Part shown: one piece after another, positions 20,301-21,338 of the stretch
Layout of the letters: each line of letters begins with the position of its first letter
Position numbering within the stretch: the stretch's first letter is position 1
DNA from: a virus
Lineage: Duplodnaviria > Caudoviricetes
DNA length: 58,833 nucleotides
Virus record (IMG/VR): IMGVR_UViG_3300028361_000031
Location: 1-58,833 of that record
Direction: 5' to 3' (one strand)
Notes under the pieces: model-generated
Database searches by the model: none
What the model saw: the letters and a program-made list of their open reading frames with translations, nothing else
What the model was told of the DNA's origin: nothing
Made by a program: the position numbers and the translations under genes

Positions 20301-20350
20301 AAATCATCAAGGCAAAGGATTTAGTTGAATTGGATGATATAATTATTTAA
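17327..20350 (+). CDS. polB: family B DNA polymerase part 1 (exonuclease + motifs A,B) with contiguous intein
   Basis: YDIEC, TGWN, YRLD, YN..DV, FAGAYV, DLTSLYPS, KILLNSLYG; lacks motif C. Confidence 0.92.
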   Translation: MYKNIHYSRRKNMIYVWDDVLGLKTFKYIKYAYQPAINGEYRSIYGDKLTKTYQYNHDDAGLFESDVPETTRTLIDMYSESDDVSNGHTILTYDIECEMISGLPDPLEATNELTSIALHSSYNDQYWVLVMDKDGSMVERKTDKAIVIPFQREEDMLLKYLELYEQIAPTIVTGWNCIPTNSNIWKKHEIVKLNTILKNDVLYDSKCTELYPVSEKIINTISLKNGECLDASSEHKFLVRYKHKSKYTNLQSSSNTYTESYLSTSDIREKSDMYDIFFQVNVNDNTNNDIEISDDCLYAMGLIYTDGSISKTDKCVSIYNNDYNLICEVKKYLDTQKRVFRTSNFRELPPKTTYRLRTWMTEYNELTKYINFIWNPDIKCKQLNVNLLSKLSKRQFWIFMSGCIDGDGHVFKDGSRGVNLCNYNGDIHNFVELIRWNGAFSYSNDNQLTIPMNSNNLWLKKYLILKIKYKKDGLQSHNTYDIKYSRSKTIKWRYDSISKSYFVALKSIEVSDKSSEMMDISCTGGQFKYRGISTHNCDNFDTPMLYNRIKRLLGETTANRLSPIGECYYSPNRKRFSIAGVSYLDYITLYKNYNFGELPNYRLDTVAKIELGRGKIEYDGNLDELFKDDIEKFIEYNLVDVELVVDFEKKLQFIELCRGICHAGHVPYEDFPWSSKYLEGALLTYLRRGNLVAPNKPNRVTLRIKSGSKGDKNIYMDKLPQNTPTSGNIKISKSPSSHFQLEFSDVDFKTNSFILKEPLPTTLLSEWKLKIDFAGAYVKPPIVGKYDWIFDLDLTSLYPSIIMSLNISPETKIAKIKDWDANKFLNGDVDEYSIDGNIITKENLRKYLDESKYTVASNGMLYQTDIVGCIPGILDLWFNKRVEYNTEKKKWGKLGDKDKYDFYDKRQLVQKILLNSLYGCLGLEIFRFFDIQNAEAVTTTGIFVIKSTADMTNIKYNRELGGQPYIFKLENGETIQRWPNSDVSVNREGIIQIIKAKDLVELDDIII
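17855..18934 (+). mobile_element. contiguous intein with LAGLIDADG endonuclease (360 aa) in PolB ExoII
   Basis: TGWN|CIPTNS...ASSEHKF...MGLIYTDG...SGCIDGDG...ISTHN|CDNFD. Confidence 0.9.
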
Positions 20351-20363
20351 ACAAAAAACAAAT

Positions 20364-20447
20364 ATGAAAATAACAAAAATTACTCGTGGGAACATCAGTA
20401 TAGATGAAAGAGGACAGTGCGACTCTAACATTTATATTGATTTCTAA
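20364..20447 (+). CDS. polB: PolB part 2 start (27 codons, ends ...SNIYIDF*), absent from ORF track
   Basis: MKITKITRGNISIDERGQCDSNIYIDF; same frame as 20478 ORF; supplies YID of the YxDTDS motif. Confidence 0.75.
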   Translation: MKITKITRGNISIDERGQCDSNIYIDF

Positions 20448-20477
20448 TCCCCGTTAGTTAATTCTTTCGGGGATAAA

Positions 20478-21338
20478 ATGTACACAGATTCAGTATTTTT
20501 TAGTGCAACACCATTGATGGATAATAGGTTGCCTAATTGGAAAAATGAAACACAGGAAATAATAACAGGATATGTAAACGATATTGCAACCGAAGTCCAA
20601 GATTATCTAAATAATTTTTATGATGTCCTTGCACCTAAAATATTTAATATCGATAAAGATAAACATAGATTTGAGATAAAGAAAGAATATGTTGCAAAAT
20701 CTGGAATTTGGATTGCAAAAAAGAGATATGCACAGTGGATAATATCAGATAATGGGTTACCAGTTGATAGATTGGATGTAAAGGGATTGGATGTCAAACG
20801 TAGTTCATTTCCAACTGCGTTCAAGGGAATCATGTCAGAGGTTCTAATTTCAATACTAAAGGGTGAAACTGAACAAGATTTATCAGACAAAGTTTTGAAA
20901 TTCAAAAAATCATTACCATCCATAAAAGTCAAATCCATATCTAAAAACTCGGCAGTTAAAGAGTTATCAAAGTATGTATCGAGTGGTGATAGACATCTAT
21001 TTCAATTTAAAAAAGGAACACCCGCCCACGTAAAGGCCGGGATTGCATATAATGATTTACTAATACATTATAAATGTGATTTTAAATATGCTCCACTTTC
21101 GAACGGATCAAAAATTAAATGGATATATTTACGGAATAATCCATTAGGATTGGATGCACTTGGATTTACAGGATATCAGGATCCACCTGAAATTTTGGAA
21201 TTATTGGAAACATACGCACATCATGATAAGATGTTCGAACGGGATTTAGAGGGCAAGCTCCAAGATTTTTGGGATTCGTTGGGTTGGGGAAAAGTAATAG
21301 ATCAAAAGAAATCAGCAGAAAAGTTTTTCAGTTTTTAG
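20478..21338 (+). CDS. polB: family B DNA polymerase C-terminal part (TDS, palm/thumb)
   Basis: TDSVFF, AKKRYA, VKGLDVKRSS, GTPAHVKA, KIKWIYL. Confidence 0.9.
   Translation: MYTDSVFFSATPLMDNRLPNWKNETQEIITGYVNDIATEVQDYLNNFYDVLAPKIFNIDKDKHRFEIKKEYVAKSGIWIAKKRYAQWIISDNGLPVDRLDVKGLDVKRSSFPTAFKGIMSEVLISILKGETEQDLSDKVLKFKKSLPSIKVKSISKNSAVKELSKYVSSGDRHLFQFKKGTPAHVKAGIAYNDLLIHYKCDFKYAPLSNGSKIKWIYLRNNPLGLDALGFTGYQDPPEILELLETYAHHDKMFERDLEGKLQDFWDSLGWGKVIDQKKSAEKFFSF

Follow-up and report, generated by a model that had tools for sequence, protein, structure and literature searches.

We analysed a 58.8-kb virus fragment from lake water (IMG/VR record IMGVR_UViG_3300028361_000031, hereafter the window), which has 32.5% G+C and represents about 30% of a genome. 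Its gene for a family B DNA polymerase (PolB) of the T4 gp43 type was found in three pieces on the + strand: cistron A (17327-20350), micro-cistron B (20364-20447) and cistron C (20478-21338). The pieces together held the exonuclease and polymerase domains and the motifs A, B and C of such an enzyme. Cistron A encodes 1007 amino acids (aa), with TTG 17327 or ATG 17363 as possible starts in the list of open reading frames (ORFs), and carried the exonuclease domain, motif A, motif B (LNSLYG) and a C-terminal extension (CTE); its Pfam matches were DNA_pol_B_exo1 (5.5e-14) and DNA_pol_B (8.5e-22). Micro-cistron B consisted of 27 codons and a TAA; it read MKITKITRGNISIDERGQCDSNIYIDF and ended in NIYIDF-stop. 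Cistron C (286 aa, MYTDSVFF...) carried the second catalytic Asp, the remaining palm and the thumb, matched DNA_pol_B at 6.3e-8 and had 566 homologues. Motif C was shared between B (YID) and C (TDS).

B and C were in the same frame, and a coding gap of 42 nucleotides (nt), at 20442-20483, exactly separated the Asp and Thr codons of YIDTDS. An earlier note, made from the letters of this DNA, had described the ORF from 20364 as running into NIYIDF-TAA and had proposed that removal of the gap restores the polymerase motif. Both observations held. The TAA was located at 20445-20447, one codon past the Asp codon, and deletion of 20442-20483 (14 codons) gave NIYIDTDSVFF, the same as in unsplit relatives such as L005 (L numbers denote related loci). 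Within B, an N-terminal extension MKITKITRGNISIDERGQC (20364-20420) preceded the PolB-homologous DSNIYID (20421-20441), which was followed by Phe and the stop. The gap ended in ATG TAC (20478-20483), where ATG starts C and TAC, as noted before, is the codon preceding ACA. One lake-water run, possibly the window's own source, gave a contig of 25 kb and depth 23 that spanned the gap; contigs from three further lake runs left 20392-20511 uncovered, and a search for near-identical phage DNA found none.

Two hairpins were present, and both stems had been recognized in the earlier note. Hairpin 1 was a 5ʹ stem-loop at 20389-20445, whose core stem (20394-20406/20429-20441; 13 bp with two G-U pairs) ended with the final base of GAT, the Asp codon. 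The minimum free energy (MFE) fold lengthened it by pairing 20389-92 with 20442-45. Hairpin 2 (20447-20474) lay inside the gap and was part of the same fold; its stem ATCCCCG/CGGGGAT (20447-53/20468-74) closed a 14-nt loop. The last base of the B stop opened hairpin 2, and its 3ʹ arm held a G-run (20469-20473) and an in-frame GAT (20472-20474). The MFE of the 105-nt region was -34.3 kcal/mol (z = -5.05), and none of 200 shuffles folded equally well. The window had a single occurrence of the G+C pattern TCCCCG..CGGGGA, for which shuffles gave an expectation of 0.00. In IMG/VR, the hairpin-2 pattern was found in six stretches, of which five were unrelated G+C-rich DNA and only one, L162, was PolB; hairpin 2 is therefore not a dispersed IMG/VR repeat. 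A group I or other self-splicing intron was rejected, because Rfam gave no catalytic RNA fold (at E up to 10, four chance-level matches only) and 42 nt is far too short. An intein as the 42-nt insert was rejected as well: its 14 codons include an in-frame TAA and offer no open Hint domain.

Comparing the locus in relatives, as the earlier note had advised, revealed the wider context. The nearest IMG/VR relative, L005 (65% identity), had an unsplit PolB, and most of about 150 related loci likewise carried an unsplit PolB reading ...KYNKELGTPDLDSNIYIDTDSVFF, without intein, split or insert. In the unsplit proteins of L005 and Mel-JY01, KYN.ELG was directly joined to D.NIYIDTDS, without the CTE. 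The CTE of A (20207-20347, about 47 aa, GGQPYIFKLENGE...DDIII) was absent from unsplit PolB, and CTE-like tails were found in L162, L142 and L143-L158. The tail of A (…LENGETIQRWPNSDVSVNREGIIQIIKAKDLVELDDIII) showed a pattern, …E.G…V.V.R.G…I….L…DD.I, that was seen in all split relatives. Of C's 120 best database homologues, many were 303-314 aa long, began with MKIKKI... and ran directly into NIYIDTDSVFF, indicating that the split between A and B is widespread. Through this split, A gains a tail of about 45 aa and the downstream cistron a head of about 16-20 aa; all gapped loci had the MKIKxI head, as did 35 database or locus sequences in which it is fused to C. The earlier note had overlooked the A/B split 90 nt upstream, the mobile endonuclease-linked cassette described below and the scarce use of Shine-Dalgarno (SD) sites by this phage.

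One relative, L162 (IMGVR_UViG_3300023478_000001), carried a gap homologous to that of the window, of the same 42-nt length at the same place and with the same central hairpin (z = -6.70), which differed from the window hairpin by one compensatory pair. L162 had GAT before the gap and GAT as the last gap codon, no ATG, and a stop in the hairpin loop. On its 5ʹ side, the landing GAT was preceded at a distance of 6 nt by a GAG, itself followed by AAAATT; the 3ʹ part was AU-rich, and the codon after the take-off codon was the rare GCG (2.3 per 1000). T4 gene 60 has a 50-nt translational bypass in the split large subunit of topoisomerase II. The features of L162 are those listed for natural gene-60 cassettes, including clades whose take-off codon and landing codon both encode Asp, in the available parts of a survey of these cassettes (10.1101/2022.08.31.505936).

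In the window, the centre of the gap was conserved relative to L162 and both ends were rewritten. At the 5ʹ end, GCG TTC of L162 corresponded to TTC TAA. The GAG corresponded to GAT, which places an Asp triplet within the gap's 3ʹ portion. At the 3ʹ end, ATT and the landing GAT corresponded to ATG TAC (three of six bases differed). The window landing codon TAC does not match the take-off GAT, whereas one tRNA could serve both codons in L162 and in 7 of the 11 short-gap lineages described next. The A-site codon after GAT was the common TTC (16.6 per 1000), and a stop would occupy that place only for a take-off from TTC. The G-run lay 7 nt before TAC, compared with the GAG at 6 nt in L162.

Pattern scans of IMG/VR yielded 21 contigs, representing 11 distinct lineages, with a much shorter gap at this site. 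In these, an MKIK.I... micro-cistron ended in Y-x-D-T-stop, and the frame of C resumed after a further 5 nt in 10 lineages and 7 nt in L168. The stop followed the Thr codon in 11/11, with TGA, TAA and TAG all represented. The codon before the second Asp was ACN in 7/11 and ATG (2), ATT (1) or GCG (1) in the others; each of these four landing codons differs from a Thr codon by one transition, and a Thr anticodon could read it by means of a G-U pair. In four lineages (L144, L145, L148 and L152) the C frame contained no ATG, GTG, TTG, CTG or ATH from the last stop to the catalytic Asp. C cannot be initiated there because there is no start-like codon, and a ribosomal hop would be needed. A hop of peptidyl-tRNA-Thr over the stop would be the only route that gives the invariant DTDS in all 11 lineages. 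Frameshift readings (+2, -1 or +1) were rejected, as they would insert one or two residues, different in each lineage, into the invariant DTD turn. Stop-codon reassignment was also rejected, because the frames differ and 42 of 62 ORFs of the window phage end in TAA. Strong purifying selection on C was evident between two gapped lineages: for L143 versus L150, the ratio of nonsynonymous to synonymous substitution rates (dN/dS) was 0.064, with dS of 0.89.

These short gaps bear on another proposal of the earlier note, a protein-catalysed excision of the 42 nt as a mini-intron, for which it cited two RNA ligases and a kinase of the phage. Phage nuclease, kinase and ligase enzymes would then cut the 42 nt from the mRNA. 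Exact removal of the gap does restore the motif. Gaps of 5 and 7 nt, however, are too short for introns, and they occur in 11 lineages at the same site with the same 5ʹ hairpin, a sharing that favours a single mechanism acting in translation; the ends of the 42 nt showed no repeat or bulge-helix-bulge, and Rfam gave no match. We know of no precedent for a mini-intron of this kind, and we regard it as extremely unlikely.

Hairpin 1 was common to all gapped sequences. In 13/13 gapped lineages it took one register, with at least 10 paired positions, and ended with the final base of the first Asp codon. A stem test found at least 10 paired positions in 12/12 gapped sequences and 9 or fewer in 71/71 distinct ungapped ones (Mann-Whitney p = 2.7e-9, which is indicative only as the sequences are related). 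Among the ungapped sequences without the hairpin were L050 and L070, which bear the MKIKxI head. Since all gapped and no ungapped sequences have it, hairpin 1 belongs to the gap, whatever the gap's length. Several positions of the stem occurred with two or three types of pair (e.g., GC 8, CG 2, AT 3), and amino-acid substitutions in the head followed synonymous changes in the PolB codons. This covariation at the cost of head amino acids indicates that selection acts on the nucleic acid.

The interval between A and B pointed to mobility. In the window it was a spacer of 13 nt (20351-20363), and only a short spacer was present also in L162, L142, L145, L155 and L158; in other relatives this position was occupied by an endonuclease-like ORF. 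ORFs of 157-334 aa were found there in L143 (9934-10404), L144 (3471-4313), L148 (1977-2648), L150 (4033-4875) and L156 (9060-10061, - strand), and a further endonuclease-like ORF lay between the PolB halves of L168 (about 4100-4225). The L156 ORF had four NUMOD3 repeats (7.6e-22) and matched a PHROG homing endonuclease (3.4e-10); three of the other ORFs matched only the unnamed PHROG 22677. By eye, these ORFs shared a C-terminal motif, …EY.E..H…D..R…I…L.C.F..I.E, and they may form a distinct family of homing endonucleases. In a FastTree tree of 179 C pieces, split and gapped states were scattered, and its well-supported branches forced at least 17 changes of the split state and at least 11 of the gapped state, as rough counts. 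From these comparisons we concluded that the 42 nt is the coding gap of a putative mobile split-and-bypass cassette in PolB of a clade of uncultured T4-like phages.

The same junction was interrupted in a different way in L004 (LR756508.1), a 484-kb uncultured phage. Its C-terminal PolB cistron (2984-4849) had an MK.KKI head, and YTD and TDS were separated, exactly at their junction, by an insert of about 315 aa resembling an intein (Intein_splicing E 1.1e-6, under cut-off); no N-terminal PolB part was found within 3 kb upstream. This insert follows the same head at the same D/T junction as the gap of the window, which as 14 codons and a stop cannot be an intein. Since the exact site is shared, the D/T junction appears to be targeted by several kinds of selfish insert.

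The cassette is built as follows. It splits PolB some 10 codons ahead of motif C and gives the upstream cistron its tail. In its original form it carries a free-standing homing-endonuclease gene, after which the downstream cistron restarts with the Lys-rich head MKIKKI... and a few PolB-homologous codons. A short untranslated gap behind the conserved hairpin then interrupts the invariant YxDTDS. In the relatives, the ribosome would cross this gap either by hopping 5 or 7 nt from a Thr codon, across a stop, to a codon compatible with Thr, or by a 42-nt bypass from GAT to GAT.

This arrangement resembles T4 mobA/gene 60 in that a split linked to a homing endonuclease interrupts an essential enzyme at a metal-binding motif (10.1101/2022.08.31.505936). 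Both halves have tails, the CTE and an N-terminal extension; the window has both tails, and the endonuclease-like ORF is found in five relatives and is missing from the window. Also similar is the short head with few host-homologous codons, in which the gap lies about 15 codons in, at the invariant Asp. The accessible text of the same study reports that the endonuclease of the MobA element is often lost, and that bypass is sometimes lost, leaving a plain split. It states that the MobA/gene 60 element is unique and restricted to Topo2L genes. The host gene here is PolB instead of Topo2L, and because of this difference the PolB cassette is an analogue, not a member, of the MobA element family; sequence likeness was neither tested nor seen. 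Other differences are the head (about 16-20 aa, compared with 31 in gene 60) and the 5ʹ hairpin, which is strongly conserved here, whereas the 5ʹ stem-loop of gene 60 is described as not conserved in the available part of 10.1101/2022.08.31.505936. Furthermore, most PolB members have a 5-nt gap, and the window copy has no matched landing codon.

The short gaps are comparable to stop-hops and short bypasses, in which a peptidyl-tRNA, faced with a stop or slow codon in the A site, quits its own codon and re-pairs a few bases further downstream (PMC5009743, PMC10732093, each seen in part). Those cases are synthetic, low-level, regulatory or mitochondrial, whereas in PolB an essential phage enzyme would not be made without the hop, which is accompanied by a conserved hairpin. 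The part of the 2016 review PMC5009743 available to us describes short stop-hops from synthetic constructs only, and lists as natural bypass cases gene 60, the byps of yeast mitochondria, a candidate in phage Hau3 and an unconfirmed one in Prevotella. The candidate in the Streptomyces phage Hau3 is a 10-nt gap in the terminase gene (PMC5009743, PMC10732093, in the same parts).

Taking the lineages together, we lean slightly towards the view that PolB harbours a second, independently evolved family of phage bypass elements, driven by a conserved hairpin that ends where take-off occurs, and that the window captures a transition from bypass to a polymerase whose catalytic beta-hairpin is divided between the 27-aa B and the separate chain C. 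To our knowledge, efficient programmed bypass in phages has so far meant essentially one element, T4 gene 60 with its homologues. A literature search that did not extend to the supplementary clade tables of 10.1101/2022.08.31.505936 yielded no account of a bypass or hop in a phage DNA polymerase.

For the window copy itself, the earlier note had offered ribosomal bypass and reinitiation at MYTDS as further options. Bypass is what the relatives, L162 and the 11 short-gap lineages, point to; in the window it meets a mismatched landing codon. Reinitiation gave the best fit to the window sequence. We favour, with about even confidence, the reading that the window holds a remodelled bypass cassette that now works by termination and reinitiation and yields a three-chain polymerase. 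A restart is favoured because the landing codon is unmatched and because the stop and the ATG are newly present. The endonuclease would have been lost and the gap remodelled, with a TAC at the landing site, an internal GAT, an early stop and a terminal ATG in A-rich context. B would be translated up to TAA 20445; the terminating ribosome would melt hairpin 2, whose 5ʹ arm begins at the stop, and translation would restart 31 nt downstream at ATG 20478. The TAA adjoins hairpin 2 and the ATG lies 4 nt past it. This is the layout of translationally coupled cistrons, in which the upstream stop is near a start codon with a leader masked by structure until the upstream ribosome opens it; the coupling itself is a prediction.

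The initiation signals were consistent with the habits of this phage. Only 5 of the 62 window ORFs of at least 120 aa had an SD-like motif upstream. A/T-rich runs were seen before the starts of these ORFs, and all but four of the ORFs were on the + strand. Such a pattern points to a host that initiates independently of SD sites, Bacteroidota for instance. ATG 20478 is preceded by ATAAA and resembles these A/T-rich starts. The earlier note had seen a GGGGA hidden by pairing just before this ATG. The pairing is present, but the argument is weakened by the rarity of SD sites, and, because the phage hardly uses such sites, the G-run is more probably a structural element than an SD site.

If the window gap is instead still bypassed, the Asp peptidyl-tRNA would move from GAT 20439-41 to TAC 20481-83, where two of three bases would pair, and decoding would resume at ACA. 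Hairpin 1 would re-form behind the ribosome, which would slide over hairpin 2, and a single B-C chain with YIDTDS would result; the ATG would be incidental or the source of a minor second product. This is the sole route to the invariant motif. The gap is homologous to that of L162, whose GAT/GAT pair suits classical bypass, hairpin 1 is conserved with compensatory changes, and the G-run lies 7 nt 5ʹ of TAC. In the available text of 10.1101/2024.12.09.627546, pairing of the mRNA as it leaves the ribosome is proposed to drive the forward bypass of gene 60. Landing on two of three pairs is known from the byps of yeast mitochondria (PMC5009743), and it is tolerated in short bypasses (PMC5009743, PMC10732093), as far as the accessible parts of these papers go. 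The landing codon of the window, however, is mismatched at its first base, and half of the six bases at the 3ʹ end of the gap differ from L162 and create the ATG. The in-frame GAT 20472-74 is a potential premature landing site, which would catch the tRNA earlier and give YID-KMY-TDS; natural gene-60 cassettes avoid premature landing triplets in the 3ʹ gap, according to the part of 10.1101/2022.08.31.505936 seen. In addition, the A-site codon TTC is neither a stop nor rare, and an SD-guided landing is doubtful given the scarcity of SD sites. We consider continued bypass a serious but unlikely alternative.

An in-frame hop on a matched pair inside the gap would likewise yield one chain, but with residues added to the catalytic turn. 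The tRNA could move from TTC 20442 to TTC 20466, with the TAA in the A site (six extra residues), or from GAT 20439 to GAT 20472 (three extra), giving the junction peptides NIYIDFGDKMYTDS or NIYIDKMYTDS, respectively. Matched codons are present, the stop directly follows TTC, and hairpin 1 runs through that TTC in the MFE fold. However, an insertion in the DTD turn occurred in 0/71 ungapped sequences and in none of our alignment A1 of PolB homologues, and the TTC pair of L162 would add seven residues. Such a hop is very improbable in our judgement.

The cassette might also have decayed and left an inactive polB copy, either in a defective genome or in one with another polymerase outside the window. 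The bypass signals of L162 are degraded in the window, and the record holds only about 30% of the genome. The earlier note had named a second intact polB, together with decay of this copy, as evidence against its proposals; none was found in the 58.8-kb record. T4-type phages have one gp43 each, which we counted against decay. Cistrons A (1007 aa, with the intein ends C...HN/C intact) and C (286 aa) are open, C retains all 54 invariant columns of alignment A1, both hairpins are intact, and the contig reached a depth of 23 in the lake sample. We regard decay as improbable.

Returning to the restart reading, the polymerase would be assembled from spliced A, the 27-aa B, which supplies the strand NIYID with the first Asp, and C (MYTDS...), which supplies the metal-binding second Asp. 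A structural model of the three chains scored 0.73, and the best control scored 0.01; a score of 0.73 was reached by 58/80 solved complexes and by 2/110 mismatched pairs. Runs agreed in at least 89% of contacts, and the predicted local distance difference test (pLDDT) of the partners was at least 83. In the model, B residues 23-27 lay against C residues 4-16, and the IYIDF strand of B adjoined the DSVFF strand of C and the motif-A region of A. The chains derive from one split gene that has solved homologues, and for that reason the pass of the model shows likeness to PolB, not binding.

A split polymerase of this type has been described before. Petrov et al. (2010) is reportedly the original paper on the split gene 43 of Aeromonas phages. 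The split gp43 of Aeromonas phages 25 and 44RR co-purifies and is active, according to the available passage of PMC2988022. As in the window, a T4-type PolB is divided there into cistrons, 43A and 43B, which a short untranslated spacer separates; a free-standing endonuclease gene may or may not be present (PMC2988022). That passage mentions no motif-C gap, micro-cistron or recoding, and the system is not known to have them.

Several points weigh against the restart reading and the cassette history behind it. C would start with fMet-Tyr where the fold expects Ile-Asp, and for this reason the last residues of B and the first two of C would compete for one place. We know of no tested precedent for a free 27-aa peptide that provides the strand of a catalytic motif. 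Hairpin 1 is intact in the window, with compensatory changes relative to L162, as continued selection for bypass predicts, and the role it would have under a restart is presumed. Only two 42-nt gaps are known, so the direction of change, from bypass to restart, is a guess, and the one contig that crosses the gap is possibly where the window itself came from. As for the relatives, a start-like codon (CTG, TTG, ATG or ATT) is available in 7/11 short-gap lineages, a hop is presumed for every cassette lineage, the tree was made with FastTree only, and many of its rows were typed from protein N-termini. The sequences show the anatomy, the homology to L162, the architecture of the cassette, the covariation of the hairpin and the purifying selection on C in gapped lineages; that relatives hop or bypass, and that the window copy reinitiates and its three chains would cooperate, is what we infer.

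If these interpretations are true, the natural series of 5-, 7- and 42-nt gaps with one covarying 5ʹ hairpin would offer an independent test bed for ribosome sliding as driven by mRNA re-pairing, by stop codons and by landing codons. The cassette would be a second case of selfish endonucleases that shield their insertion site by untranslated DNA in a catalytic motif, and the window would be a candidate for a polymerase whose active-site hairpin is built from two chains. There is also a consequence for annotation: gene callers truncate such polymerases, and at least 14 of the 120 best homologues of C start at a Met 12 residues beyond the catalytic Asp. Further database proteins start at or break at the motif, with MTDSVFF, VTDSVFF or MDSVFF.

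Eight database proteins (P0038, P0069, P0092, P0095, P0096, P0098, P0104 and P0114) had odd motif sequences, such as ...CTSTPEADSVFF, ...TSTRKSDSIYF, YIDTQFTDS and YIDTQIDS. They look like read-through of other gap types, possibly 7-nt gaps; no relatives of P0098 were found in IMG/VR. Another irregular PolB was seen in L031 (IMGVR_UViG_3300046170_000405, about 3300-3504), where the frame changed between motifs B and C: LNSLYG was in a different frame from DSNIYIDTDS, with normal spacing. Possible explanations are a frameshift, an error in sequencing and a further recoding site.

Cistron A of the window contained a LAGLIDADG-type intein of 360 aa at the Exo II motif (17855-18934, + strand; GWN/CIPTNS...STHN/CDNFD). 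Its Pfam matches were weak, both under cut-off (LAGLIDADG_3 1.9e-4, Intein_splicing 4.5e-3). It was missing in L005 and most relatives, and the unsplit L005 read GWNIDFFDTPMLY there. The tail of A and the head of B were considered as a degenerate split intein, which we do not claim, since Pfam gave no Hint match there. Elsewhere in the window, a second G+C-rich hairpin (CCCCGA...TCGGGG) was found in an intergenic region at 51326-51348, ending 1 nt before ATG 51350. The window had two CCCCG..CGGGG hairpins, against 0.07 expected, and the one at 51326-51348 was unrelated in sequence to hairpin 2.

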